DNA of 63,691 nt. Source: an uncultured Bacilli bacterium (GTDB lineage Bacteria > Bacillota_I > Bacilli_A > RF39 > UBA660). The position numbers and the translations under genes are program-made. Location: assembly GCA_944332025.1 (NCBI GenBank), contig CALVJB010000003.1, forward strand, positions 1 through 63,691, read 5' to 3'. The notes below the pieces were generated by a model. The model searched no databases and was not told where the DNA came from. It saw only the letters and a list, made by a program, of their open reading frames with translations. Below are positions 850 through 39,465 of this stretch, piece after piece; positions within the stretch are counted from its first letter, which is position 1, and each line of letters begins with the position of its first letter.

Positions 850-2124
850 TTATTTAGAAGTCTTCTTAAATATAACAAAGGATACACCTTTTTTTTCGTT
901 CTTAACTTTAATATCATAGTTCATTAGTAATAAGGTTTTCTTGACTATTGAAAGTCCTAATCCAAATTCACCCTTAATACCTTTCCGGAACGGAGTAAAG
1001 ATTCCTTCAAGGAGAGTATCATCTATATTAGGACCATCATTATATAAGGTTAAACGGTTATTTTTGGCAGTAATTTTAATTGTAGACTCTGTATATCTCA
1101 TGAAGTTAGCTAGTAAATTATCTATTACAGTTTCAAAGTAATCATGAGTACCATAGAATTTACTATTCTTATCAAAAGAAACTTCGAATTTAACATCTTT
1201 TCTTCTAAACTTAAATTCTTTTATCGCAGTATTTACTATTTCTTTGATATCTACTAACTCATAGTCTACTTTTTTATTATCTTTTAAATAATCTAATTTA
1301 TTCAAATAAAGAAGTGAATGAACTTTTAATTCTAATTTTTCTGTTTGTTCACTAATAACATCTATTACAGTATTAGCATCTTCTATTTTATCATTATAAG
1401 CTTCTATATATGATTTTATTACGGTGAGAGGTGTTTTAAAATCATGTGAAATATTTTGATACATTTGATTACGATACTCTTCTTGGTTCTTTAAAGAGAT
1501 ACGCATATCTTCAATAGCCAATTCTAATGAACGCATTTCATCGTCAATTTGAAATGATATACTATGATCATAGTTATCATTATCTATATTGTCTATTTTT
1601 TGTTTAAGCTTTTCTATTTTTCTAACTATAAAGCTTCCCCAGAATATAAGGATTAAAGCGATTATTAGAAAAGCTAGTATTACTACAGGTAGTACTGCGT
1701 CTAATATATCTTGTTTAGTCTTTTCAATATAAGTATCATTGGTAAGAGCTATTTTAGTAACATCATCATTATGGAGTGTATAATAATAATAAATTTGATT
1801 TTTATAAATAAATTTTCCGTAATTATCGGTAAAGGCATTCATAATATCATTAACATCATTAAATTCTATAATGTCATGAATATTATCTGAATAGGCAACT
1901 GTATTTCCTATTTTATATAGGTAAGCAATCTCAGTTGTAACTAAGTCTTCATTTATATCTGATTGAACAAATTCAAGAGGTTCTCTTAAGTAACTATAGA
2001 TATTACTTTCTGCAGAAGGGATAATGACTTGAGGTAATATGATTCCTAAAGTTAGAAAGAAAGCTAGAAATACTACTATTATTAATATTAATAACTGATG
2101 AGATAATTTATTAAAGTATTTCAT
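850..2124 (-). CDS. two-component sensor histidine kinase
   Basis: 424-aa ORF. Two TM segments flank an extracellular region. H-box SHDFKTPLT and HATPase motifs (NLLANFMRY, GLGLSIVK). 4-nt overlap with the upstream response regulator gene. Confidence 0.9.
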   Translation of the reverse strand: MKYFNKLSHQLLILIIVVFLAFFLTLGIILPQVIIPSAESNIYSYLREPLEFVQSDINEDLVTTEIAYLYKIGNTVAYSDNIHDIIEFNDVNDIMNAFTDNYGKFIYKNQIYYYYTLHNDDVTKIALTNDTYIEKTKQDILDAVLPVVILAFLIIALILIFWGSFIVRKIEKLKQKIDNIDNDNYDHSISFQIDDEMRSLELAIEDMRISLKNQEEYRNQMYQNISHDFKTPLTVIKSYIEAYNDKIEDANTVIDVISEQTEKLELKVHSLLYLNKLDYLKDNKKVDYELVDIKEIVNTAIKEFKFRRKDVKFEVSFDKNSKFYGTHDYFETVIDNLLANFMRYTESTIKITAKNNRLTLYNDGPNIDDTLLEGIFTPFRKGIKGEFGLGLSIVKKTLLLMNYDIKVKNEKKGVSFVIFKKTSK

Positions 2125-2783
2125 GCACTTAATCTATATCCATATCCATAAATAGTATTAACGTTTAATAAAGGCATTTTCTTTCTAAGTCTTCTAACTA
2201 AATCATCTACGGCTCTATCACTACCAAAGTAATCATTACCCCATACAGCATCTAGTATATCTTCTCTTGAAAAACTCTTATTAATATTTTCTACTAATAA
2301 TACAAGTAAATCAAATTCTAAAGTTGTAAGTTTAATAGGTTTATCTTTAACACTTACAATGCGTTTATCTAAATCTATAGAATAATCTAAGTAATTAATT
2401 ATTTTAGATTCAGTACTTTGATATACTCTTTTTATAATATTATTAACTCTTAAAACAAGTTCTTTACTAGAATAAGGTTTAGTAATGTAATCATCGCTAC
2501 CTAACTCAAGGCCTAAAATTCGATCCAAATCCTGATCTCTTGCAGATGTAAATATTACAGGTACAAGGGGATATTTTTCACGAATTGCTTTGATTACATC
2601 ATAGCCATTAACATCATCTCCTAACATTATATCTAGAATCCAAACATCAACAGGATTACCTATATAATTAATAGCTTCGCTTCCTTTAGTAAAGGTAACA
2701 ACGTCATATCCGGCTTTTTCTAAATACATTTTAACTACAGTTGCTAAATCAGTTTCATCTTCAACTAAACAAATTTTATACAT
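2121..2783 (-). CDS. OmpR/PhoB-type response regulator
   Basis: 220-aa ORF. Receiver domain (VEDE...ILDIMLGD...KP) and a C-terminal winged-helix ending GYGYRL. Confidence 0.9.
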   Translation of the reverse strand: MYKICLVEDETDLATVVKMYLEKAGYDVVTFTKGSEAINYIGNPVDVWILDIMLGDDVNGYDVIKAIREKYPLVPVIFTSARDQDLDRILGLELGSDDYITKPYSSKELVLRVNNIIKRVYQSTESKIINYLDYSIDLDKRIVSVKDKPIKLTTLEFDLLVLLVENINKSFSREDILDAVWGNDYFGSDRAVDDLVRRLRKKMPLLNVNTIYGYGYRLSA

Positions 2784-3028
2784 AACACCACCTACCCCTA
2801 GTATAACATTAATTCAAGTTTTTGCCTACAAGTAAGTAGGCTTATCACTCTCCTTTCTTTTCTATAATTTATGTAAAAAACTATAGTTGTAAACGTAACT
2901 TAAAATTCTTTACTACATTTACCACTTCCTTTCTTTTACAAGATTATCATATCAATTAAAAGTGTATAAATTATAAAAGAAATGTGGGAAATTATGGGAA
3001 AAGAAAAGAATATCTATGAAAGATACTC

Positions 3029-4879
3029 TTAACTAGCTAAGGCAATTTCAAAAGGTTGTTCTTTAGTGCCTAGACCTCCTGTTATTACTACGTTTGATTT
3101 TAGATTTATTGACGGCCGGACACCGTACGCGTTGGTCGAAGTATTGTTGTACGCGCGACCATTGTCGCCCACGTCACGCACGTAAGACGTACTATATGGT
3201 GTTAAAGTCCAATAAGATGTATTATTACCATATCTATCAAATTGTCCGGACATTAATTCTCCTAAACGGAGTAAGCCAACTTTAGCATTTGTACTTTTAG
3301 CATATCCTGACATATTAGTATCTGTATATTTTGCTAGTTTATATGATGTACCACTTACTACAGTTCCAAGGTACCAAGTTGTATTATCTTCTATCATTGA
3401 ACTATAACTACTATCCACGTAATTTGTTAGATAGTCGCCATTTAAAAATGCTCCTATAGTATTACTACTTGAAAAACTAGTATTACTTCCAAAGGCACTT
3501 GTTATAAAGGTTCCAGAACTCTTTAATGGTTCGGCACTGGTTATCTTCGTTAATCCTTTTGTTTCATGGCTTACTATTCTATATAGATTATTTTCATCAT
3601 TTCCAAATCTTATATATTCCCCACTATACCTGCTTGACAACAATGTTCCTGAAAGATTAGTATCATTATCTCCGTTTAAGCGATAAGGGTTATCTATTGT
3701 TCCATCACCATCTACAATTTTAACGCTAGATTTTAGATTTATTGATGGCCGGACACCGTACGTGTAAGACGAACTATCGCTGTACGCGTAACCAGAGTTG
3801 TTCACGTAACGCACGTTAGACGTACTATATGGTGTTAAGGTCCACCACCAAAGTCCATTATTTAAATAACCATTTGTTTCTCCATTATTACTAGACTGAT
3901 ATTCATACATATTTAAAAGTCCTACTGCATCTGTTACTATTGTACCACTATTGCTAGGTCTTGTTATACTTCCTAAACTAGTGGCATCTAATGTTGCATC
4001 CCATGTAGCATCAGTTACAATGAAATTCTCATAATCTCTTAAATTACCTAAGAAACCATCTACTGTGGTATCATTTAACCATTCTTCCATATAACTTCCT
4101 GCAAAGGCTGTATTACTACTTGCATTATATGGTATAGCACTTATATCCCACTGTGTTACTAATTTTACACTATTATCACTTGGATCTATACTAACAGCTC
4201 TCCATAACTTTCCACTATACCAGATATAATTATTAGGATTTTCTCCTGTTATAAAAGTTTGTTCAGGATCATCAGTATTTATATTATTAGAACTATCTGC
4301 AAGAAGAACTTCAGCTAGTTTTTGTTTTTCTTGGCTAACTTCTACTCTTAACTTACCACTAAATACTTGACCTGAATAATTACCATCTACTTCGTCTGTT
4401 ATCCAAAGATTTAAACTATAAGTATTTGTACCTCCACCTTCTATTGTTCCAGAGTCTAAAATTCTATTAGGGTTAGTTCCTATACTTGTTAAAAGTGTCG
4501 CTCCACTATCGGTTCCATTTTTATTTAAATTATATTTTAAATACTTATCATCTATTCTAGTATCAGTTTCACCTATAGTATTATCATCTAAATAAATTGT
4601 ATAATCTACAGCCTTATTTCCATTATTTCTTAATTCAAAGGTAGATGGTGTAGAACTCATACCTTTACTATCACTTATGCCTATAGCATTATCTAAACTT
4701 ATCCCCTCACTAGTCTCATCTAATACTAACTCCAACTCTCCTACTTTTACTATTTGATCTGTTCCAGATAACTGTGTAGAAAAGTATGCATAAGTTATCG
4801 CTAAAGCTAATACTAATATAATTATTATACTTATTACTATTGTTATTACTTTCTTCTTTTTATTATTAGTTTCTCCCAT
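3029..4879 (-). CDS. secreted surface protein: SipW-type signal peptide, camelysin/TasA-like N-domain, and two tandem lectin-like modules that each end in a hypervariable-looking block
   Basis: 616-aa ORF with the SD aggag upstream. The N-terminus has a K-rich segment, a TM segment, then TYAYFST (compare TasA/CalY xAxFxD). Two roughly 200-aa modules each end in W(W)TLTPYSTS...YGVRPSINLKS. Confidence 0.85.
   Translation of the reverse strand: MGETNNKKKKVITIVISIIIILVLALAITYAYFSTQLSGTDQIVKVGELELVLDETSEGISLDNAIGISDSKGMSSTPSTFELRNNGNKAVDYTIYLDDNTIGETDTRIDDKYLKYNLNKNGTDSGATLLTSIGTNPNRILDSGTIEGGGTNTYSLNLWITDEVDGNYSGQVFSGKLRVEVSQEKQKLAEVLLADSSNNINTDDPEQTFITGENPNNYIWYSGKLWRAVSIDPSDNSVKLVTQWDISAIPYNASSNTAFAGSYMEEWLNDTTVDGFLGNLRDYENFIVTDATWDATLDATSLGSITRPSNSGTIVTDAVGLLNMYEYQSSNNGETNGYLNNGLWWWTLTPYSTSNVRYVNNSGYAYSDSSSYTYGVRPSINLKSSVKIVDGDGTIDNPYRLNGDNDTNLSGTLLSSRYSGEYIRFGNDENNLYRIVSHETKGLTKITSAEPLKSSGTFITSAFGSNTSFSSSNTIGAFLNGDYLTNYVDSSYSSMIEDNTTWYLGTVVSGTSYKLAKYTDTNMSGYAKSTNAKVGLLRLGELMSGQFDRYGNNTSYWTLTPYSTSYVRDVGDNGRAYNNTSTNAYGVRPSINLKSNVVITGGLGTKEQPFEIALAS
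3096..3208 (-). repeat. DGR-type variable-region-like block (C-terminal module)
   Basis: 113-nt GC-rich block. It is near-identical to 3729-3841 except at positions 1-2 of 12 codons. The invariant codons contain no adenine (gtg cgt, ggt, gcg, tcg, ggt gtc cgg ccg). Confidence 0.7.
3729..3841 (-). repeat. DGR-type variable-region-like block (internal module)
   Basis: Partner of 3096-3208. The scaffold nucleotides are the same, while the flanking DNA of the two modules has diverged. Confidence 0.7.
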
Positions 4880-5029
4880 TCTTACTTCACTCCTATATCT
4901 TTTAGTATATACATTTTGCTATTCTTAATACTCTTTATTCTTATAGATAGATTATAAAATAAATATAAGGGTAATGCAAGTAAGTTATTTGTAAATTACA
5001 AGTTATTTACAAATAAGTGAAAAAACTAT

Positions 5030-5138
5030 GAATTTTGTAAATTGACCCTATTTTTTAGAGTCAATTTTTAATTTTCTCTAGACGAATTTATAAAATTGCC
5101 CCTGTTTTTTGAGTGAATTTACAAAATTACCTTTTTGC
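5030..5138 (+). repeat. degenerate roughly 30-bp tandem repeats (AAATTnnCCC...TTTTT units)
   Basis: Four units: gaattttgtaaattgaccctattttttagag / tcaatttttaattttctctagac / gaatttataaaattgcccctgttttttgag / tgaatttacaaaattacctttttgc. Confidence 0.6.
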
Positions 5139-5208
5139 AATGATTTTCTCCATATGTTAGAGTGTAGACATCTGCAGATAAATCATTATTGTTGGAGGTA
5201 TAAATATT

Positions 5209-6085
5209 ATGAAACAAGAAGAAAATAAAGATACTAAAGAAAAGAGTGAAAAGAAATTTATTAGTCTTTTAAGTGATACTACATTTAAACATTTCTTTAA
5301 AATAGAAGATTATAAAGAATTCTTTAATACTATTATTAAACCTATTATAAATATGAATATTAAGGATTTTAAGTTATATGATGCTGAACTTAATAGTGGT
5401 AATGAAAAACGCGATTATCGTTTAGATATATTACTTGTAAGTGATCTAGTTGATCTAGTTATATCAATAGAAATGAACCAGTTTCCTAGTGAAGAGACAA
5501 AATATAAAGATAGATTATATGTATATGCCTTACTTGCTAAAAGTTTAAATAGTGGTGAAGATATTAAGAAGAAGAAAGTCATTCAAATAAACTTTAATAA
5601 AGAAAAGCATCCTTATGTTAGTAAAGGTTCATTTTATTTAATGGATAAGGTAACTAATAGAGAAATAAAAGATTTTGAAATATACGAAGTGTATCTTGAA
5701 AATTACGGGAGGAATAAGATATAATGGAGACAATAAAGAAGAAGCATATCTATCTTTATTTACTGCAACCTCTTATGAAGAGTTAAGAGAAATAGCAGGA
5801 GATGATAAGGAGGCATTGAAGATTGTGGATGAATTAGAAAGACTAGGTCTTGATGATAAGTTTGGATTAGCATATGATAATGAAATAATGCAGAAAAAAA
5901 TGATTAATACCGCTCGTAATTGGGGATATGATGATGGTAAGGCAGATGGACTAGAAGAGGGTGCTAAAGCAAAAGAAATAGAAATTGCAAAAAATTTCCT
6001 TAAAGATGGCATACCTATAGATATAGTATCTAGAAATACTGGTTTAAGTGAAGAAGAGTTAGAAGAACTAAATAAAGAAGCTTAA
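5209..6085 (+). pseudogene. Rpn/YhgA-like PD-(D/E)XK recombination-promoting nuclease / putative transposase, split into two overlapping ORFs (5209-5724 and 5675-6085, +1 frame)
   Basis: The N-terminal part has LLSDTTFKHFF ... RDYRLDILL ... IEMN, which fits a PD-(D/E)XK core. The C-terminal part has the family-typical tail EIAKNFLKDGIPIDIVSRNTGLSEEELEEL. The same split is present in copy 2. Confidence 0.75.
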
Positions 6086-6099
6086 GTGCTTCTTTATTT
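6070..6099. terminator. bidirectional hairpin between the convergent Rpn-like gene and divIB
   Basis: aaataaagaagc-ttaagt-gcttctttattt: a perfect 12-bp stem with A/T runs on both sides. It overlaps both stop codons. Confidence 0.7.
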
Positions 6100-6781
6100 A
6101 TTGCATAATCTGAAAATGATTACCTGAATCTAAATATAAATAACCTTTCTTACCATCTAATTGTGGTAGTACATCATTATAATAATTTAATCTTTCAAAC
6201 TTAGTAATAGTTATATAAACACTATTGCCATCATCCATATATAGTAAAAACCTATCTTCATCGAACTCATTAGGATCATACTTAATCTCACTAATCTTTT
6301 CTCTTATACTCAAATCTACTCTTTTATAATACTTAATAAATCTATTTAATATCTTATTAGGTATCTCATTAATTAACCTAGGTATAGCATAAGGAGTCTC
6401 TTTATCTAAAGTAATCTCATCTTTATTTTCTAATACATACTTACCATTATCTTCTCTTTTACAAAGAATCTCATATTCGTTTACATTAATCTCTATAATA
6501 TGATAAAAACTTCTATTTATATCAACACTCTTAATAAGAGGATTTTCTTTTATATTATTTTTCATAGTTATATTTAATGTCTTATAGAAACTAGGATAAT
6601 CTGTAAGTCCTGCTAATTCTATTATATCATCATCACTAAGTACTTCATTGCCTGTAATTATAATATTTTTGACTTTAGTATCAAGAATAAATAAGCATAC
6701 AAAAACTATTACAGTAATTACTATAATAAATATTAAAAATGGTAATAGTCTTAATTTTTTCTTCTTGATTACTTTAGCCAT
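6098..6781 (-). CDS. divIB: cell division protein DivIB/FtsQ
   Basis: 227-aa ORF with an N-terminal TM anchor followed by a POTRA-like segment (VKNIIITGNEVLSDDDIIELAGL). It lies directly downstream of murG-murB. Confidence 0.8.
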   Translation of the reverse strand: MAKVIKKKKLRLLPFLIFIIVITVIVFVCLFILDTKVKNIIITGNEVLSDDDIIELAGLTDYPSFYKTLNITMKNNIKENPLIKSVDINRSFYHIIEINVNEYEILCKREDNGKYVLENKDEITLDKETPYAIPRLINEIPNKILNRFIKYYKRVDLSIREKISEIKYDPNEFDEDRFLLYMDDGNSVYITITKFERLNYYNDVLPQLDGKKGYLYLDSGNHFQIMQ

Positions 6782-7708: not shown

Positions 7709-8783
7709 CCCTAACTAATTTTAAAATCTCTTCATATATTCTAGTTGCACTATCTAAAGTTCCTCTTTTTAATAAAGCACTCTTCATGCTTTTTAATTTT
7801 TCTTTATCATTAAGAGTCTTATCTAATAGATTAACTAAACTATCTTTATTAAAGTCTTCCTCTTTAAGGATAATACATGCTCCATCATCCTCTAGACTCT
7901 TAGCATTTACATATTGATGATTATTAGTAACATATGGACTAGGTACCATAATAGCAGGTAATCCTATACTTGTTATTTCTGCAATAGTAGAAGCCCCACT
8001 TCTAGTTACTATTAAGTCTGTATCTTTCATTAGTCCTAACAAATTATCCACAAAAGGAACTAGTTTTACATTACTACTTAGTTTTATATCTTTATAATCA
8101 TCATAATAGTTTTTACCTGTTATTAATAAGACTTGATAATCTTTATTTTTAAATAGAGGTAATACCTCTTTTAACTTCTTAGTCATTGTTAAAGATCCAA
8201 GTGAACCCATAACTATTATAACAAGGGCTTTATCTTTTTTAAAGCCTAAGGTTGTTTTATTAATCTTTTCTATATCTTTTATCTGTTCACTACGAGGATT
8301 TCCTGTATAGATTGTTTTATTTTTTGGAAAGTCTTTAATACTCTCTTTAAAAGATACTAATACTTTATCTACATATCTTGATAGGAATTTATTAGAAACA
8401 CCTGGTATAGAGTTTTGTTCATGAATAATTGTTTTTATATTAAGTTTAGATGCAGAGTATATAACTGGTGCTGATATATAACCACCAAAGCCTATAACTA
8501 CATCTGGCTTAAACTTAACTAACTCATTCTTAGCTTTCTTTACGGCTCTAAAATATGTTTTCATAACATCTATATTCTTAAAGATATTCTTTCTATTTAA
8601 TCCTTTCATCTCTATTCCTACATAAGGTATACCTTGTTTAGGAATAATATCTTTTTCCATTCTATCAGTAGTACCAATATAGAGAATCTCTACATCTTTA
8701 TCTTTTTCTTTAAGTTTAGATATTAATGCTAAAGCTGGAAAAATATGTCCCCCTGTACCTCCTGCTGTTATAACTACTTTCAT
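7701..8783 (-). CDS. murG: undecaprenyldiphospho-muramoylpentapeptide beta-N-acetylglucosaminyltransferase
   Basis: 360-aa ORF. N-terminal ITAGGTGGHIFPALAL and C-terminal TRSGASTIAEI motifs. Confidence 0.93.
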   Translation of the reverse strand: MKVVITAGGTGGHIFPALALISKLKEKDKDVEILYIGTTDRMEKDIIPKQGIPYVGIEMKGLNRKNIFKNIDVMKTYFRAVKKAKNELVKFKPDVVIGFGGYISAPVIYSASKLNIKTIIHEQNSIPGVSNKFLSRYVDKVLVSFKESIKDFPKNKTIYTGNPRSEQIKDIEKINKTTLGFKKDKALVIIVMGSLGSLTMTKKLKEVLPLFKNKDYQVLLITGKNYYDDYKDIKLSSNVKLVPFVDNLLGLMKDTDLIVTRSGASTIAEITSIGLPAIMVPSPYVTNNHQYVNAKSLEDDGACIILKEEDFNKDSLVNLLDKTLNDKEKLKSMKSALLKRGTLDSATRIYEEILKLVRDE

Positions 8784-8812: not shown

Positions 8813-10186
8813 TTATTTATTATATTTAGTAATTAAACTTTCAAATTCCTCTTTTATTTCTTCTAATCTCTCTTCAGTAGAAGCTTCAAATCTTGCTGTT
8901 AAGTTAGGACCTGTATTAGATGCTCTAACACTAGCCCAAGAATCATCAAAAGTTACTCTAACTCCATCTATATTATTATAAGTATAACCTTTTTCTTTAC
9001 AATAGTCTTCTATCTTTTTAACTACATCAAACTTAATCTCATCAGTAGTCTTATATTTAGTCTCTGGAGTAGAATAATATCTATTAATACCATCAAGTAA
9101 TTCATCTATACTCTTATTAGTATTAGATAATATCTCTAATAATCTAAGTCCTGCATAAATACCACTATCAAAGCCTAAGAATTTATCTCTAAAATAAACA
9201 TGACCTGATAATTCTCCTCCAAATGCTAAATCAAGTTCTTTAACTCTCGCCTTAGTATAAGAGTTACCTGTTCTATAACAGTAAGGTGTTCCTCCTAATT
9301 TATTTATTTCATCTTCTAGGCTCTTACTACATTTAACGTCATATAGGAATGTCTTATTACTTACTTTATTAATAATATCTCTAATAATTATAATCATATA
9401 ATAATCTATTGGTATAAACTTACCACTCCCTGAGATAACTCCTACTCTATCACCATCTCCATCAAAAGCAAGACCAACATCAGCTTTTCTATCTATAACT
9501 GCTTGTTTCAATTCACTCAAATTACTTTCAATAGAAGGATCTGGATGATGATTAGGAAAACTTCCATCACTTTCACCATTAATAATTGTGTAATCTACAT
9601 TCACTCTTTTAAAAACATTATCTAATAGTATTGATGTAGTTCCATTACCAGGATCAAGTACTACTTTAACTTTTCTTTTACCAAAAGATAGATTATCGGT
9701 TAAGGCACTTAAATAATCATCTTTTACATCTTTTCTAGTAATAGAACCTTCACCATAATGAAAATTACCTTTCTTTATGTAATCATAAAAGTCTTTTATT
9801 TCTTTTCCTTTAGCATTATCATAATCTTTAAAGGCAAATTTAAAACCATTTTCATCTTTAGGATTATGACTAGCAGTTATCATAATACCTGAATCTATTT
9901 TTAAATCAATACATCCAAAATAATACATTGGTGTTGTACAAAGTCCTAAATCATATACATTAATTCCTGTATCGATAAGTCCTTGAATTAAAGCTTGATG
10001 TAAGTCAGGTGAAGATAATCTATTATCATGACCTACTACACATCTATCTTTACCAAGTTCATATAACTTACTACCAAAACCTACACCTATAGTGTAAGCA
10101 GTGTCTACATCGATATCAGTAGGAACAACTCCTCTAATATCATAACCTCTAAATATATATTTATTAATATCTTCTTTTATCTTCAT
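8813..10186 (-). CDS. phosphomannomutase/phosphoglucomutase-family phosphohexomutase
   Basis: 457-aa ORF. FRGYDIRG N-terminus, active-site TASHNP, metal loop DGDGDR and GELSGH sugar loop. Confidence 0.85.
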   Translation of the reverse strand: MKIKEDINKYIFRGYDIRGVVPTDIDVDTAYTIGVGFGSKLYELGKDRCVVGHDNRLSSPDLHQALIQGLIDTGINVYDLGLCTTPMYYFGCIDLKIDSGIMITASHNPKDENGFKFAFKDYDNAKGKEIKDFYDYIKKGNFHYGEGSITRKDVKDDYLSALTDNLSFGKRKVKVVLDPGNGTTSILLDNVFKRVNVDYTIINGESDGSFPNHHPDPSIESNLSELKQAVIDRKADVGLAFDGDGDRVGVISGSGKFIPIDYYMIIIIRDIINKVSNKTFLYDVKCSKSLEDEINKLGGTPYCYRTGNSYTKARVKELDLAFGGELSGHVYFRDKFLGFDSGIYAGLRLLEILSNTNKSIDELLDGINRYYSTPETKYKTTDEIKFDVVKKIEDYCKEKGYTYNNIDGVRVTFDDSWASVRASNTGPNLTARFEASTEERLEEIKEEFESLITKYNK

Positions 10187-11700: not shown

Positions 11701-12476
11701 TCACTCCTCATCTATATCTATATACATATTTAATTCATCCTCCGTTGGAAAATCTTTTAATAAGTTATTAGGAAGCTCATTAAATATTTTATACTCACTA
11801 ACTCCTAATCCACAGTAATTTTATATTGATTGCCAACAAACGAAAAACTACTACCTAATTCTAATAAAACATTTTTTAAACGTTCTATCATTTTATTTTC
11901 AAGTTCTCTTTCTTTATAGTCTTCTGTTAATTCAATCAAATCAAAGACATAAGGTTCTTTCATAATGTTATTAGCAAGATCACTATTTCCTTTTAAAGTT
12001 AAATTAAAGTTATTGTGTTTAACATTTTCTACTTGTCTTTTATATAAATCAGTATCTATTTGATAAATTAGAATGTTTTTAGACCATCCTTCTTCTAAAC
12101 ATTTTTCCATATACCATTTACGAATAGTTTTATCTTTTACTTTTTGCATTAAAGTAATATTATGTTTCCAAGGTAATTTTGCACAGTTTAAGCAGTGCAA
12201 AAATTCATCATCATCTTTATATTCTTCATAAAAAGCTTTCATATAATTTAAATTACGAACAGAAAAACCTTTTAAAGTAGGAAAAGTATCTTTTAATTCT
12301 AAAGCTATGTTTTCTACAAATTTATTTCCCCAAGTAAAGTTTTCACTAATTGTTTTCCCAATTCTATAATAAAGATTAACTAAATTGGCATTAGCATTTA
12401 CCATAATTTCTAACTGTGTATCTTTAACATCTTTTTTAATATCATCACATATTTCTCTAAATGATTTATCTAGCAT
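11701..12476 (-). pseudogene. YhcG/DUF1016-type PD-(D/E)XK nuclease gene with its catalytic core deleted
   Basis: ORF 11805-12476 carries the DUF1016 N-domain and stops at ...GNQYKITVD. The family's C-terminal tail (GLGVSEYKIFNELPNNLLKDFPTEDELN...) follows in another frame (about 11701-11812). The expected roughly 70-aa nuclease core between them is absent. Confidence 0.6.
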
Positions 12477-18445: not shown

Positions 18446-18625
18446 CGTTATCACCCTCTTTATAATATCTATTTCCATATATTAAAGTCTTTGTTTAAAC
18501 CCAATCTTTTTACTTTTTTAAATCATACAACAAAAATCCTCTCAAGTAAGTATATTGTACCATATCTTTATTGTTTTTTGAACAAAATAAAAACCCTTAC
18601 ATTATAAGGATTTAATTACATTAAG

Positions 18626-18710
18626 TGGTGCGGGTAACAGGAGTTGAACCTGCACGTCTAAGACACTAGATCCTAAGTCTAGCGCGTCTGCCAATTCCGC
18701 CATACCCGCA
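18626..18710 (-). tRNA. tRNA-Leu (anticodon UAG)
   Basis: 85-nt cloverleaf with a 7-bp acceptor stem, anticodon loop cuUAGga, long variable arm, GGTTCAACTCC T-arm and an encoded CCA. Confidence 0.9.
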
Positions 18711-18717
18711 AGATAAA

Positions 18718-18794
18718 TGGTGGACCCTGATGGACTCGAACCATCGACCGTCCGGTTATGAGCCGGATGCTCTAACCAACTGAGCTAAGGGTCC
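18718..18794 (-). tRNA. tRNA with CAU anticodon (elongator Met or lysidine-modified Ile2)
   Basis: 77-nt cloverleaf GGACCCTTAGCTCAGTTGGTTAGAGC...CTCATAA...GGTTCGAGTCC...CCA. It lacks initiator features. Confidence 0.88.
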
Positions 18795-18877
18795 ATAATA
18801 ATCACTGCTATTTAATATTAGCATAAATTCTAGACTTCTGCAAGAGTTTTTGCAAAAAAATAGCCATACTTTTATGA

Positions 18878-24752: not shown

Positions 24753-24791
24753 TTCTTTTCTATTAATATTTTAGCATAAAGAAAGAAATGT

Positions 24792-25656
24792 TTAAACTTC
24801 TTTCTTTAATTCTTTTAACTCTTCTATACTTAAACCAGTTACTTTTATTATATCTTCTTTAGGTGTACCTATATTAAGGAGATTTTTAGCAATTTCTATT
24901 TCTTTTGCCTTAGCACCTGCTTCCTTACCATCATCATATCCCCAACTACGAGCGGTATTAATCATTTTTTTCTGCATCATCTCGTTATCATAGGCTACTC
25001 CAAAATCATCATTAAGTCCTAGTCTTTCTAATTCATCCACAATCTTCAACGCCTCCTTATCATCTCCTGCTATTTCTCTTAATTCTTCATAAGAGTTAGC
25101 AGTAAATAAAGATAGATATGCTTCTTCTTTATTGTCTCCATTATATCTTATTCCTCCCGTAATTTTCAAGATACACTTCGTATATTTCAAAATCTTTTAT
25201 TTCTCTATTAGTTACCTTATCCATTAAATAAAATGAACCTTTACTAACATAAGGATGCTTTTCTTTATTAAAGTTTATTTGAATGACTTTCTTCTTCTTA
25301 ATATCTTCACCACTATTTAAACTTTTAGCAAGTAAGGCATATACATATAATCTATCTTTATATTTTGTCTCTTCACTAGGAAACTGGTTCATTTCTATTG
25401 ATATAACTAGATCAACTAGATCACTTACAAGTAATATATCTAAACGATAATCACGTTTTTCATTACCACTGTTTAATTCAGCATCATATAACTTAAAATT
25501 CTTAATATCCATATTTATAATAGGTTTAATAATAGTATTAAAAAACTCTTTATAGTCTTCTATTTTAAAGAAATGTTTAAATGAAGTGTCTGATAAAAGA
25601 CTAATAAATTTCTTTTCACTCTTTTCTTTAGTATCTTTATTTTCTTCTTGTTTCAT
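24792..25656 (-). pseudogene. Rpn/YhgA-like nuclease / putative transposase, copy 2, with the same two-ORF split (25141-25656 and 24792-25190)
   Basis: The N-terminal ORF differs from copy 1 at only 3 residues. The C-terminal ORF stays open despite substitutions and a 4-codon indel. Confidence 0.75.
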
Positions 25657-25838
25657 AATATTATACCTCCAACAATAATGATTTATCTGCAGATGCCTAC
25701 ACTCTAACATATGGAGGAAATCATTGCAAAAAGAGAATTTTGTAAATTCACTCTAAAAACAGGGGGCAATTTTATAAATTCGTCTAGAGAAAATTAAAAA
25801 TTGACTCTAAAAAATAGGGTCAATTTACAAAATTCATA
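24792..25838 (-). repeat. inverted-repeat copy 2
   Basis: Reverse complement of 5027-6085, including the upstream repeat array (25726-25835). Confidence 0.9.
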
Positions 25839-25844
25839 TAAATT

Positions 25845-26600
25845 TTATTTTTTTACATAGGCTGTTCCTTTGGATTCAGTATTACCTTTAGCTTTATCAT
25901 CACTTCTAACTAAACCTAGATAGTTCTCTCTTTCTATATTAGCTTTTATTTCCTTTAAAGCAGGTAAAGATAATTTATAAATACTATTAATATCAAAATA
26001 GTGCTTATCATTCTCTTTATCTTTTTCTTGCTTTATTTTATTTATTACTGCTTTATCTTTATCCTTAACATTTTCTAATATATTTTTATTTTCTAAATCT
26101 GCTTCATTTAGTACTTCTTCATTTTCTATCACAAAGTCTCCCTTTTTAATATCTTCAATTTTATACGCAATTGATTTACCATATGCTGTTAAAGGCGTAA
26201 GAAGAGCAAAAGAAGAAAATGTTACTACAGCAGAAACACTAAATAAACTCATATCATTTAAAATTGATAATGGTATGCTACCAAAACCAGTAATAAGTAA
26301 AGGTATCGCCACAGCCATAGCTATCTTTTCTTTTACTATTAATCTTTTTAATAACTTTTTATTTCTAAAATGTTGGTCTCTCATTAATTTTAGTACTTTT
26401 ATTTTATTCTTTTCAATATTAGCATACCTAGGTTTCGAACCATCTGCCATATAAACAACCAAATTATTATAGTCTTCTGTAGTTCTTTTAATCATTATAT
26501 TACTTTCATCGTTTATATACTTATTGCATTTTCCTTTTTCTACTTCAAACCTCATTATATACTTATTACTCTTCTTATCTTCATCTCTAATTACTTTCAT
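25845..26600 (-). CDS. hypothetical membrane protein
   Basis: 251-aa ORF with the SD gaggaag and two central TM helices. I recognise no domain. Confidence 0.55.
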   Translation of the reverse strand: MKVIRDEDKKSNKYIMRFEVEKGKCNKYINDESNIMIKRTTEDYNNLVVYMADGSKPRYANIEKNKIKVLKLMRDQHFRNKKLLKRLIVKEKIAMAVAIPLLITGFGSIPLSILNDMSLFSVSAVVTFSSFALLTPLTAYGKSIAYKIEDIKKGDFVIENEEVLNEADLENKNILENVKDKDKAVINKIKQEKDKENDKHYFDINSIYKLSLPALKEIKANIERENYLGLVRSDDKAKGNTESKGTAYVKK

Positions 26601-36261: not shown

Positions 36262-37748
36262 TAACCGGACAGTTTTTGAAATGATATAAAAATGGCCTAG
36301 AGATTATCTAAGTCATTTTGTCTATTAAAATTGAAATAAACAACCTTTTTTGATATTCTTAATATATCCAATAAAAGAATAGAGGTTGTTTATGAATAAA
36401 GTATATAATACTAGGGGAAGAAATCGCAGGTGAAATGAAAGATTTTTTATTAAAAAGTAATCCTAATATCAGAAAAACAAGGGCTTAAAATTATTCCTTT
36501 TATATCTTTAGGTATGATTTTATCTGAATCTTCTGTTGCAAGTGGCATTGCCAAAACTCTTAAAGATGAGTTCTCTTTAGTTCAACATGAATCTGTTATT
36601 AGAAGAATTAAAAGATTATTTAAAAATAAATTATTTGACCCTTATAAATTCTATGATGATGTTATTAGATATGTCATTTCTAACTATAAGCCTAAACACG
36701 ATGATAAAAGAATTCATATAGTCTTTGATCACATGTTTTCTCATAATAATTATACTGTTTTTATGATTACTATGAGAGTTGGTAAACAAGGTATTCCTTT
36801 ATGGTTTAGATGTTTTAAAGATAATGATGACTCTGATGCTTTTGCCGAAGAACTTCTTAAAGAAGGTATTTCTTATGTTTCTTCTTTATTTGATTCTTCT
36901 TATAAACTAATATTTCTTGCTGATAGATGGTTTAATTCTACTTCTTTAATGCAACATATTGACTCTTTAGGTCATACTTATTGTATTAGATTAAAAAGAA
37001 ATATTAAAGTATTTGTCTATGATAAAAAAGAAGGACATAAAGTTTGGAAATTTTTAGATGAAATAGAACCTTACAAATATCACTCTAAATCTTTTAATGA
37101 TATCCTACTTACTGATAACTCTTATAAAACTAATATTGTTATAAGTAAAACGGATGGTGTTAGTGAACCCTGGATTATTGTTACTAATGGTTCTACTAAA
37201 AGAGCCATTAAAGATTATGGTTATCGTTTTGGTGCTATTGAATCAGTATTTAAAAATCAAAAATCTAATGGCTTTTATATTGAATCTGTTGTTAAAGCAG
37301 ACTTAGATTATTTTACTTCTATGTATACTCTTGTTTGTTTTTCTACTCTTTATTTAACTATATTAGGGGCAGACTATTCTAAAAATAATAGTTGTTATAA
37401 AACTGTTAAAATTACTACTCATAAATATTTTATAGAAAATGGTATAAGAGTAAAGAAAAGAGTAATGTCTTTATTTAATACAGGACTTACTCTATTTCAT
37501 CTAGCTTTTAATTCCTCGAAATACATTAGGCTCCCCTTTTCCTTTACTCTCTATGATATTTAAAAAACTTAAATAACCAAAGTTCTTTTTGTCGTGGTTT
37601 AATTTATACTAAAAAGTGTAACTTATGATACCAAAAGTTACACTTTTTCTATTTTTATCATCATTGTTACCAACTCATACACTATTGGTCGTACTTTTAT
37701 ATCTATTTTCCCTTTATTTTTCAACACTTTTACTAAAACTGTCCGTTA
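36262..37748 (+). mobile_element. IS4-family-like insertion sequence
   Basis: Terminal inverted repeats taaccggacagtttt (left) and aaaactgtccgtta (right). One DDE transposase gene. I could find no clear target duplication. Confidence 0.7.
36514..37563 (+). CDS. IS4-family DDE transposase (N-terminus frameshifted)
   Basis: 349-aa ORF. D (VFDHMF), D (LADRWF) and a YGYRFGAIESVFKNQK motif close to the YREK signature. A likely original start at 36434 (MKDFLLKSNPNIRKT) lies in another frame, across the run gaaaaaca. Confidence 0.75.
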   Translation: MILSESSVASGIAKTLKDEFSLVQHESVIRRIKRLFKNKLFDPYKFYDDVIRYVISNYKPKHDDKRIHIVFDHMFSHNNYTVFMITMRVGKQGIPLWFRCFKDNDDSDAFAEELLKEGISYVSSLFDSSYKLIFLADRWFNSTSLMQHIDSLGHTYCIRLKRNIKVFVYDKKEGHKVWKFLDEIEPYKYHSKSFNDILLTDNSYKTNIVISKTDGVSEPWIIVTNGSTKRAIKDYGYRFGAIESVFKNQKSNGFYIESVVKADLDYFTSMYTLVCFSTLYLTILGADYSKNNSCYKTVKITTHKYFIENGIRVKKRVMSLFNTGLTLFHLAFNSSKYIRLPFSFTLYDI

Positions 37749-37749
37749 C

Positions 37750-39465
37750 TCAGGAAATTGTATATGGACTACTAGCAGTCCCATCTCCAGACGTAAACCC
37801 GTTTTCAGTGGTCACATTGATAACTGGACGCACGGCGCCGTCGCTAGCTACACCGACGCCATCGAGGTAATCACCCTCATTCCAGACATAAGCAGTACCA
37901 CCATCGAAAAAGGCCGGCGTCATACTCCAATAAGCTAACATAGAGCCATCACTTACTATATTTAAATAACTGTTACTTACTACCATCAAATTTTCTCCTG
38001 CTAATACTAACTCATCTACTGTTATCAATCCTGCTTTTAATCTATAACTTCCTCCATAACTTTCACTTGTACTTGGACATTTCAATGTTGGATTATTTGG
38101 TTTAGCATAACTTGCTAACGCTTGTCCTAATCTATCGAAGCTTGCAAAGATATTTATTCCATCCACACCACTAAATCCATATTCACTTGCCGGTTTATAT
38201 CCACTACTATCACTACAGAACCTGCCTTCTATTATCTTACTATCATATATGGTGTTTCCTAAAGCATTTTTATACCATGTATCTACTTCTTTTTTAATAA
38301 ATGAATCTGTTCCATTATCATAAGTATATCCTGCATATTTTGGATCATTATACTCTAAATTATATGGACTTATTCCTACTGAGTTTGAAGTTGATATATC
38401 CTTATCATCTGGAAACTCTGGATGTGTTACACTTGTCCCATTATATATTAATCTTAAACTTCCATCTCCGTTTACTCTTACTATCTTCCAGTACATTTTA
38501 TCTCCTGCACTAGCAAGTTTTACTCTATTACTTTCACTACAACTACTATTATATTCTTGGCAAGCTTCTAAGCTTTGAAACCAATTACTCCTATAGTTAT
38601 ATACATAATAATCACTTGTATATTCTCCAAATTGAACATTATTATTTGTCACCGCTCCTCGATAATAGTAACTTATACCATCTTCATCTTCACTCGCATA
38701 AACTCCACTTATCGCATATTCTGGATTAGAATCTGACATTCCATCTTCTTCATCATTAGGATCATATTGAACTCCATTACTTGCATAGTTAAACATATTA
38801 GTTTTTTCTTCTTGTAGTTCATTATCTTCTAGTATCTTCTGTGTTGTTAATGGTACATCGCTACCTTTCTCTCCATCTTTACCATTCACATTTATCTGTA
38901 CACTAAACTGTAGATTTCCTCCATCTCCTTGAGGATTATAATCTTCATCTACCCACATTCTTAGTCTATATCTATTACTCTCACTAGAGTTCATACTACT
39001 TGTATATAAACTCATCTCTCCTGATGGTCTTCCTGTATATGTATTTTCACTACTTTCTTCATTATAAGTTTCAGGTGTCATTAACTCTTCTTCACCATCA
39101 TCTGTTAATCTAGTTAGATATAACTTTATATTAGAACCATCTATCTTTCTTTCACTAGTTGTTACATCTTTTGCACTTATCTCATAATTGATATTTACAT
39201 CTCCTACTATATTACTACTTACTGTAAAATCAAAATACTCTCCATCTGTTAGTCTTTTCTTACCAGTTGCATCTGTTGTTGGTAATGCTCCATTTAAACT
39301 AATAGTATTACTACTTTCAGTATAAGTCATAGTAATAGAACCAGTTGTTATAGTATTTGCTCTTTGTCCTTCTCCCATAAATCTAAACGCAGCATATGAC
39401 ACTCCAATTATCGCCAATACCATTACTAACACTACTATTATTATAATTTTTTCTCTTTTCTTCAT
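37750..39465 (-). CDS. secreted surface protein, paralogue of 3029-4879: SipW-type signal, camelysin-like N-domain, and one lectin-like module with a GC-rich 3' block
   Basis: 571-aa ORF with the SD aggagg. N-terminal K-rich and TM segments, then SYAAFRF. The C-terminus reads WSMTP...GAVRPVINV...GDGTASSPYTIS. Confidence 0.85.
   Translation of the reverse strand: MKKREKIIIIVVLVMVLAIIGVSYAAFRFMGEGQRANTITTGSITMTYTESSNTISLNGALPTTDATGKKRLTDGEYFDFTVSSNIVGDVNINYEISAKDVTTSERKIDGSNIKLYLTRLTDDGEEELMTPETYNEESSENTYTGRPSGEMSLYTSSMNSSESNRYRLRMWVDEDYNPQGDGGNLQFSVQINVNGKDGEKGSDVPLTTQKILEDNELQEEKTNMFNYASNGVQYDPNDEEDGMSDSNPEYAISGVYASEDEDGISYYYRGAVTNNNVQFGEYTSDYYVYNYRSNWFQSLEACQEYNSSCSESNRVKLASAGDKMYWKIVRVNGDGSLRLIYNGTSVTHPEFPDDKDISTSNSVGISPYNLEYNDPKYAGYTYDNGTDSFIKKEVDTWYKNALGNTIYDSKIIEGRFCSDSSGYKPASEYGFSGVDGINIFASFDRLGQALASYAKPNNPTLKCPSTSESYGGSYRLKAGLITVDELVLAGENLMVVSNSYLNIVSDGSMLAYWSMTPAFFDGGTAYVWNEGDYLDGVGVASDGAVRPVINVTTENGFTSGDGTASSPYTIS
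37825..37923 (-). other. GC-rich, adenine-poor candidate variable region
   Basis: 33 codons dominated by NNC/NNG codons (acg ccg gcc ttc ggc gtc gac ggc gcc gtg cgt) within an otherwise AT-rich gene. It occupies the same structural position as the blocks at 3096 and 3729. Confidence 0.55.

Follow-up and report, generated by a model that had tools for sequence, protein, structure and literature searches.

Two variable regions of the diversity-generating retroelement type in a tandem-module lectin-like protein gene of an uncultured Bacilli bacterium, probably supplied in trans

Can a gene be recognised as the target of a diversity-generating retroelement (DGR) when the retroelement itself lies off the contig, and by what route would such a gene be rewritten? 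These questions are raised by contig CALVJB010000003.1 of an uncultured Bacilli bacterium (63,691 nt, 27% GC; the whole stretch of DNA analysed here, hereafter the window), in which a 616-aa open reading frame (ORF) on the minus strand at 3029..4879, defined by ORF calling and translation, contains two GC-rich blocks of similar sequence. The original prediction, made from the letters alone, interpreted these blocks as two variable regions (VRs) written from one template repeat (TR) by adenine-specific mutagenic retrohoming. The comparisons reported below make it near certain that both VRs are DGR products. We further propose, with a probability of about three in four, that they are served in trans, and episodically, by a cassette located elsewhere in the genome.

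The two 113-nt blocks, predicted at 3729-3841 (VR1) and 3096-3208 (VR2), are both present on the minus strand and in frame within the 616-aa ORF. Their ungapped alignment gave 18 differences in 113 nt, the number that had been estimated by hand, and 15 of these fall in codon positions 1-2 of the same 12 codons, the other three (window 3839, 3767 and 3746) being in codon position 3. As proposed, 11 of the 12 differing codons can be derived from an AAY or ACG codon by changing only adenines, the exception being ACC/TCT; AAY-type templates leave no possibility of a stop codon at the variable positions. The invariant codons interspersed among the variable ones (GTG, CGT, GGT, GCG, TCG and GGT GTC CGG) contain no adenine, and the non-adenine scaffold is common to VR1 and VR2. 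The VRs lie 633 nt apart in separate modules that have indeed diverged outside the blocks, since similarity drops off on both sides and BLASTP aligns the last 66 residues only (56% identity). According to a repeat search, the pair is the sole long direct repeat of its kind in the window, where the 14-mer TACGGTGTCCGGCC occurs twice against 0.01 expected; no third copy of the block was detected in the window by the repeat search, by the 14-mer allowing two mismatches, by blastn-short or by nhmmer.

The codons of the blocks are foreign to their surroundings, as had been noticed. The G+C content at third codon positions (GC3) reaches 0.68 in the VR1 core and 0.72 in the VR2 core, compared to 0.145 in the 41 other ORFs of the window and 0.143 across the rest of the gene, and the codon CGG appears a single time among 15,917 background codons. 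A single count in the original prediction had to be corrected: instead of 47 G+C in a 78-nt core, we found 41 (VR1) and 46 (VR2) in a 77-nt core. Scanning for 80-nt segments of at least 46% GC yielded eight islands, four of which reach 50% GC, namely VR1, VR2, a tRNA pair and a coding island at 37756-37954. The tRNA pair consists of tRNA-Leu(TAG) and tRNA-Met(CAT) (18626-18794, minus strand) inside an island at 18612-18816.

The 616-aa protein is composed of an N-terminal hydrophobic helix (an anchor or a signal), a beta-sandwich region and two DUF6273 (C-type-lectin-like) modules, each of which terminates in one VR. The Pfam search matched DUF6273 (E 2.1e-12) in two stretches, the best of which, residues 315-384, corresponds to profile positions 102-172 of 172. 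The full-length AlphaFold2 model displays a helix at residues 5-35, and residues 190-616 are mostly above 90 in predicted local distance difference test (pLDDT); the model of the C-terminal module alone was poor, with a pLDDT of 62.8 and less than 50 in the VR part. Phage DUF6273 proteins were among the Foldseek matches of the target model, and no match to Mtd or TvpA was isolated with the full-length multi-domain model. Searching NCBIfam with the 616-aa target returned no match, not even to a signal-peptide class. A C-type-lectin-like fold of the modules is thus supported by Pfam, by the structural resemblance to phage DUF6273 proteins and by the literature. The placement of the blocks at the end of a lectin-like module holds for both VRs, which map to the C-terminal ends of the two DUF6273 domains, as in the published targets of gut-phage DGRs, where DUF6273 is a C-type-lectin-like domain with its VR at the C-terminus (PMC10743442, PMC11792537).

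More than 3000 homologues of the protein were found. Over 120 family members, the entropy is 2.6 bits in the VR cores compared to 0.78 elsewhere, with peaks at aa 355-374 (VR1) and aa 566-585 (VR2), and within the cores fixed V, R, V, G and A residues interleave with the variable positions.

The template deduced from the window VRs led to real retroelements. The first 33 nt of the all-adenine template of the original prediction, with one N and an exact match required, were searched in 185,579 GTDB species genomes (one genome per species). Exactly two matches were obtained, both directly downstream of homologues of the target gene in uncultured Bacilli (Candidatus Onthousia-like). In the locus L011 (L-numbers, from L008 to L029, denote loci or contigs of other assemblies compared with the window), a target gene with two VRs is followed by a TR, a 115-aa ORF (ORF115), a 114-aa Avd-like ORF and a 304-aa reverse transcriptase (RT). 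The suggestion that a template would be found next to a DGR-type RT and an Avd gene was thereby borne out by a full TR/Avd-like/RT cassette in a relative; the TR and RT belonging to the window itself were not found.

The L011 RT matches RVT_1 (3e-17) and the PHROG RT family (2e-60), carries the motifs IGNYTSQ and YMDD, and has DGR phages (nd12, Faecalibacterium and Bordetella) as its nearest phage records. Its best match among solved structures is a 328-aa 'Reverse transcriptase' (PDB 8ub7-8ube, E 8e-19), which we take to be the Bordetella enzyme. The Avd-like ORF, which overlaps the start of the RT, matches the PHROG family 'Avd protein of DGR' over its full length (6.4e-7), and its alignments to Pfam bAvd and NCBIfam DivGenRetAVD, although full-length, are weak and below the cut-offs. 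Homologues of this RT identified further cassettes in L013, L014, L016, L017, L026, L028 and L029, arranged in the order target, TR, ORF111, Avd and RT and located in differing chromosomal contexts, one of them on a 1.29-Mb contig. Five TR variants are distinguished, carried respectively by L011, by L013, L014 and L016, by L026, by L017, and by L028 and L029.

In these relatives, the differences between template and target are those of a DGR. All 10 mismatches between the L011 TR and VR2, and 17 of the 18 between this TR and VR1, are located at TR adenines; the mismatches in L013, L014, L016, L017 and L028 are likewise almost exclusively at TR adenines, with two VRs per ORF. Altogether, one TR serving two VRs of one ORF was observed at seven related loci with five TR variants. 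L013 and L014 have identical RTs and targets that are nearly identical outside the VRs, and both VRs differ between them. Moreover, a change from CCG in the L013 TR to CAG in the L014 TR (~9019-9100) recurs as a CAG codon (Gln) in L014 VR1 (8109-8222). This mirrored change constitutes direct evidence of TR-to-VR information flow. The cassettes of the relatives are textbook DGRs, and the standard architecture of the target family has two VRs per ORF.

The window can be compared with these templates. Of the 16 core positions that distinguish its VR1 from its VR2, 13, 12 and 12 fall on adenines of three independent TRs (p = 3e-5 to 3e-4). Could the blocks nevertheless be an ordinary motif that purifying selection has conserved in a duplicated lectin module, with a coincidental adenine pattern? 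The WTLTPYS...GVRPSINLKS motif is conserved across the family, as such an explanation expects, but selection on the protein fails to explain identical synonymous GC-rich codons with a GC3 of 0.7, and it leaves unexplained both the enrichment at TR adenines (p = 3e-5) and the success of the predicted template in matching real TRs. We therefore consider this explanation barely credible. Adenine-specific mutagenic retrohoming, as originally proposed, is upheld by the adenine-specific TR-VR mismatches of the relatives and by the position of the window differences at TR adenines; no cognate TR or RT of this genome was found in the window or in the other sequences searched. The ACC/TCT exception is covered by the low-frequency non-adenine substitutions reported to be common, in 44.6% of VRs (PMC6642488).

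The TRs of the relatives also define the extent of the VRs. Judged from them, the template-derived tract is only ~80 nt long, at 3747..3826 for VR1 (AGT ACG TCT ... GGT GTC CGG CC, aligned to the TRs of L011, L013 and L017) and at 3114..3193 for VR2, both on the minus strand and at the ends of the first and second DUF6273 modules, respectively. What remains of each 113-nt block consists of conserved flanking sequence that the TR lacks, TGGACYTTAACACCATAT 5' of the tract and RTCAATAAATCTAAAATC 3' of it. In L011, L013, L017 and L028, the TR equals the VR through the GC-rich run and diverges immediately after it, the TR continuing with CATTTCCT. The equivalent element of the window, GGTGTCCGGCC, closes VR1 at 3747..3757 and VR2 at 3114..3124 (minus strand). 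It is thus a GC-rich 3' boundary resembling an initiation of mutagenic homing (IMH) element, as had been predicted, with a putative role in homing. Beyond it, the 3' flanks ATCAATAAATCTAAAATC (VR1, 3729..3746) and GTCAATAAATCTAAAATC (VR2, 3096..3113), also on the minus strand, were delimited by block alignment and family comparison. The flank of VR1 is absent from the TRs and nearly invariant at synonymous sites across the family, and the conserved VR 3' flank may be a cis element for homing.

The cassettes of the relatives present further features. In every cassette, the TR RNA and Avd are separated by a conserved ORF of 111-115 aa (L011 5555-5902, minus strand; L013 9348-9683; L017 1357-1695; L028 5345-5683); it has no significant match in Pfam, NCBIfam or PHROG and may encode an additional accessory factor in this clade of DGRs. 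The TR lies within a conserved RNA of ~330 nt (L011 5915-6262, minus strand; L013 8985-9335; L017 990-1345; L026 1-345), with a leader containing TATAAT at one end and a hairpin plus a T-run at the other. A helix is predicted between TAGTAGGGAAyTAyC just upstream of the TR and GrTArTTTCCTTG ~70 nt downstream, and a second hairpin is predicted 3' of the TR, both with compensatory changes among only four sequences; Rfam returned no match on the TR region. In L016 (5324-6685), the cassette-linked target is broken and only its N- and C-terminal fragments align, the TR, ORF111, Avd and RT being intact. Genes of the Rpn/PDDEXK_2 type directly follow the RT in L017, L018 and L028.

Where, then, is the retroelement that wrote the window VRs? 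Blastn shows the window to be syntenic with L011, whose reverse-complemented positions 425-1677 correspond to window 4258-3030 and 3812-5755 to window 2823-883. Between the target and a response regulator gene, L011 contains 2.1 kb of TR, ORF115, Avd and RT, whereas the window has only ~205-245 bp in the corresponding empty intergenic site (2784..3028, from the target stop codon to the response regulator gene, minus strand), which bears no similarity to a TR, an RT or Avd. The syntenic junction is marked by a two-component system identified by Pfam (850..2783, minus strand; response regulator 2121-2783, histidine kinase 850-2124). These genes follow the RT in L011 and directly follow the target in L027, and they do not belong to the DGR. 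One and the same locus thus exists with and without the cassette. A prophage origin was rejected because the flanks are housekeeping genes.

The absence of a cassette beside the target gene implies that any diversification must come in trans, from elsewhere on a chromosome of ~1.1-1.3 Mb. Apparent traces of rewriting are visible at loci without a cassette. Activity was assessed by comparing assemblies with one another, not from reads. The strain comparison proposed as a check was possible with L010 and L027, two orthologues of the window gene that also have no local cassette: 11 bases differ within 58 nt of VR1, nine of them at predicted adenines, and VR1 is flanked by 440 nt (before it) and 190 nt (after it) without any difference. 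In VR2, one base differs, at a predicted third-position adenine. Differences confined to VR1 between identical flanks, in orthologues devoid of a cassette, point to supply in trans. Furthermore, at two RT-less loci, scaffold variants agree between VR1 and VR2 of a gene and differ between strains, TCG as opposed to CCG for the window and L023, and GTG CGA as opposed to GTC CGG for L009 and L024. Such agreement is explained by a template shared by the two VRs of a gene; intragenic conversion fails to explain it, since the adenine sites differ between the VRs. Finally, with a GC3 of ~0.7 against a background of 0.145, and considering that AT-rich codons have taken over the degenerate VRs of decayed paralogues (e.g. 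P0012 and the gene upstream in L023), the window VRs look recently written.

Several observations weigh against a supply in trans. No RT, Avd or TR was found in the 63.7-kb window, including by tblastn with the L011 RT, nor in the 10 kb beyond the kinase of the orthologue L027 (~92% nucleotide identity). A TR matching the window (3' end ...GGTGTCCGGC) was not found in the GTDB species genomes, the JGI metagenomes, IMG/VR or the TR-bearing loci compared. Each of the five TR variants departs from the scaffold of the window VRs at 8-10 non-adenine positions. VRs may also be static: the protein of L008, from a second assembly, is identical to that of the window, VRs included, VR1 is identical in 10 members or samples of the paralogue cluster P0033, and the cassette-linked targets of L028 and L029 are identical. 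Some differences do not involve adenines, namely ACC/TCT in the window and, at third positions, two C/T changes that distinguish L010 from L027, and strains also differ by recombination patches outside the VRs. From the static VRs of other family members, it follows that activity is episodic at best.

Both window VRs have the same eight non-adenine differences from the L011 TR, plus one or two more each, and their 3' ends read GGT GTC CGG CC where this TR reads GGG GCT CGC C; differing at the same positions, the window VRs stem from a different TR variant. Searches for this variant gave the following results. The predicted TR had no match in IMG/VR and the JGI metagenomes. The window-type 3' end CGAACNGTGTCCGGCATTTCC had four chance matches in the JGI metagenomes, in contigs of 59-70% GC, and the shorter 3'-end pattern AACNGTGTCCGGCATTTCCT had none in IMG/VR, where a degenerate pattern of the 3' half hit unrelated high-GC phage DNA only and the TR leader motif produced chance matches only.

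Many of these points would be expected if the target were an orphan, that is, if a DGR had written the VRs and its cassette had since been deleted at the same site, leaving frozen relics subject to ordinary mutation and recombination only. The syntenic site is empty, there is no RT or TR in the window nor within 10 kb beyond in L027, the VRs are identical in two assemblies, and many paralogues have static or decayed VRs. Frozen relics, however, should not retain intact scaffolds with a GC3 of ~0.7 in a genome whose GC3 is 0.145. Nor do they fit with cassette-less L010 and L027, which differ at 11 VR1 sites, mostly adenines, between identical flanks, or with scaffold variants that agree between VR1 and VR2 within a gene and differ between strains at RT-less loci. 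We regard such a loss as unlikely.

Recombination has also shaped the gene, which is a mosaic in which windows of 55-85% identity stand beside a 360-nt stretch with 100% identity in three strains; L010 and L027 are set apart by a recombinant patch (L010 positions 1830-2042), and paralogues occur in at least four chromosomal contexts. These facts might suggest that gene conversion among paralogues and between modules produced the pattern, with no retroelement acting at this gene. Conversion, however, would homogenise every position, and here the non-adenine positions are shared while the adenine-templated ones differ; the codon usage of the VRs is foreign to the genome, and relatives carry real TRs with adenine-specific mismatches. 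Recombination as the only agent is hence very improbable, and plain domain duplication and gene conversion were rejected as the source of the adenine pattern.

Taken together, these results favour episodic writing in trans of both window VRs. We infer that this genome contains a cognate cassette, that the system is currently active and that the protein binds a ligand. According to the proposed mechanism, the gene would encode an exposed protein in which two DUF6273 modules stand in tandem, each with a DGR VR as its C-terminal, ligand-facing segment. A DGR-clade RT, acting with Avd, would copy a TR RNA into cDNA and misincorporate opposite adenines; this cDNA would overwrite a VR, addressed by the ends that the two have in common, AGTACGTCT at the 5' end and the GC-rich GGTGTCCGGCC at the 3' end. 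As both VRs have the same ends, one TR could serve both and each would be rewritten independently. The trans cassette would probably be located beside a paralogue. The TR predicted for the window, AGTACGTCTAACGTGCGTAACGTGAACAACAATGGTAACGCAAACAACAATAATTCGACCAACACGAACRGTGTCCGGC followed by ATTTCCT, comprises 12 AAY codons and three further codons starting with A. Each AAY codon can give rise to 15 amino acids and no stop, which by simple arithmetic would allow up to ~10^16 protein variants per VR.

The window contains a second DGR-like target (37750-39465, minus strand), a surface-type protein of 571 aa with an N-terminus of the same kind as that of the 616-aa protein. It has one candidate VR, in its C-terminal segment WSMTP...AVRPVINV, which has 53% GC at 37786-37935 within the coding island mentioned above. 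In 51 homologues, the entropy at aa 518-545 is 2.13 bits compared to 0.60 elsewhere, again with fixed scaffold residues interleaved. The scaffold of this target differs from that of VR1 and VR2, which implies a second TR; no TR for it was detected in the window. A DDE transposase gene (36514-37563, plus strand; DDE_Tnp_1, E 4.7e-5) adjoins this target. In L023, a tandem upstream paralogue (3-1676) has 378 N-terminal nt that are 85% identical to window 38871-39242, of the second family, and a C-terminal part resembling the two-VR family with an AT-rich, decayed VR; on sequence grounds, it appears to be evidence of domain shuffling between the two target families.

RT-less paralogues may retain pieces of the cassette. 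In L009 (~11921-12008) and L012 (~2664-2765), the TR leader GGCTATAATTAG...TAGTAGGGAATTAC is followed by only the first ~45 nt of the TR and then by unrelated sequence. These truncated stubs look like remnants of cassette loss or movement.

Elsewhere in the window, an inverted repeat of ~1.1 kb (5011-6114 and 24763-25854, with a 743-nt core at 96%) brackets ~19 kb and could mediate an inversion. Each of its arms contains a gene of the Rpn family (HTH_Rpn_C), broken in the window into two ORFs. In L008, where the G found at window 5707 is absent, the gene corresponding to the copy at 5209-6085 is whole and encodes 291 aa.

How does this system compare with known DGRs? It shares with that of Bordetella phage BPP-1 (mtd, avd, TR, brt), the prototype, template codons rich in AAY, a VR that forms the C-terminal end of a module with C-type-lectin fold, a GC-rich element bounding the VR on its 3' side and, in the relatives, adenine-specific TR-to-VR differences as well as Avd and RT. 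By contrast, BPP-1 has one VR per gene instead of two, its TR is located between avd and brt whereas in the relatives described here the TR directly follows the target, ahead of the accessory genes, and the window locus itself is without a cassette. A parallel is offered by cellular DGRs with surface-lipoprotein targets, Treponema denticola TvpA and Legionella LdtA; there, as here, the element is chromosomal and acts on an exposed protein of C-type-lectin type that belongs to the cell itself. These two proteins differ from the present target in being C-type lectins of the formylglycine-generating-enzyme type rather than DUF6273, and in having a single VR.

Phages with DUF6273 DGRs comprise nd4 and nd12, with their 'tentaclins' (PMC10743442), and the Faecalibacterium prophages Lelie, CP11, Roos and Pioen (PMC11792537). 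The present system differs from them in being chromosomal with housekeeping flanks, the IMG/VR scans having yielded nothing related, in its cell-surface target with an N-terminal anchor and two tandem DUF6273 modules that each have their own VR, and in the order target, TR, ORF111, Avd and RT found in the relatives, together with many RT-less paralogues. As regards multi-VR DGRs, which were also treated by Schillinger et al. 2012 (PMC3521204), one TR serving several VRs is common, and more than one VR in the same ORF was reported in 31 of 271 (Yan et al. 2019, PMC6642488), so that describing two VRs in one ORF as uncommon was fair. What differs here is that the two-VR layout is fixed across a whole protein family of one bacterial lineage, with the VRs in separate and otherwise diverged modules.

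These comparisons lead us to a wider model of the family, which we put forward tentatively, as a possibility more doubtful than not. In these gut Bacilli with reduced genomes, one or two chromosomal DGR cassettes would serve in trans a dispersed multigene family comprising a 616-aa type with two VRs and a 571-aa type with one. Which copies stay writable would be decided by synonymous variants at the GC-rich end of the VR, acting as an address. The cassette would move or be lost between paralogous loci, leaving TR stubs behind, and the two modules would be rewritten independently, yielding combinatorial binding surfaces.

The mechanism is a known one, to which our data add no new mechanism. What is distinctive is a chromosomal DGR in Candidatus Onthousia-like Bacilli, a target whose two tandem modules, each with a VR, are a design common to the whole family, numerous paralogues without an RT, some of which have a ~45-nt TR stub, and a cassette that is present or absent at one locus. 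A DGR target can thus be recognised from raw sequence even with the retroelement off the contig, and a template inferred from the VRs was accurate enough to locate a real element in another genome. The finding documents, in an uncultured and little-studied gut lineage whose genomes measure ~1.1-1.3 Mb, a chromosomal DGR that diversifies lectin-like surface proteins of a large family at two sites in each protein, and it provides a natural system for studying the range over which a DGR acts in trans, what keeps a VR writable and what these bacteria bind.

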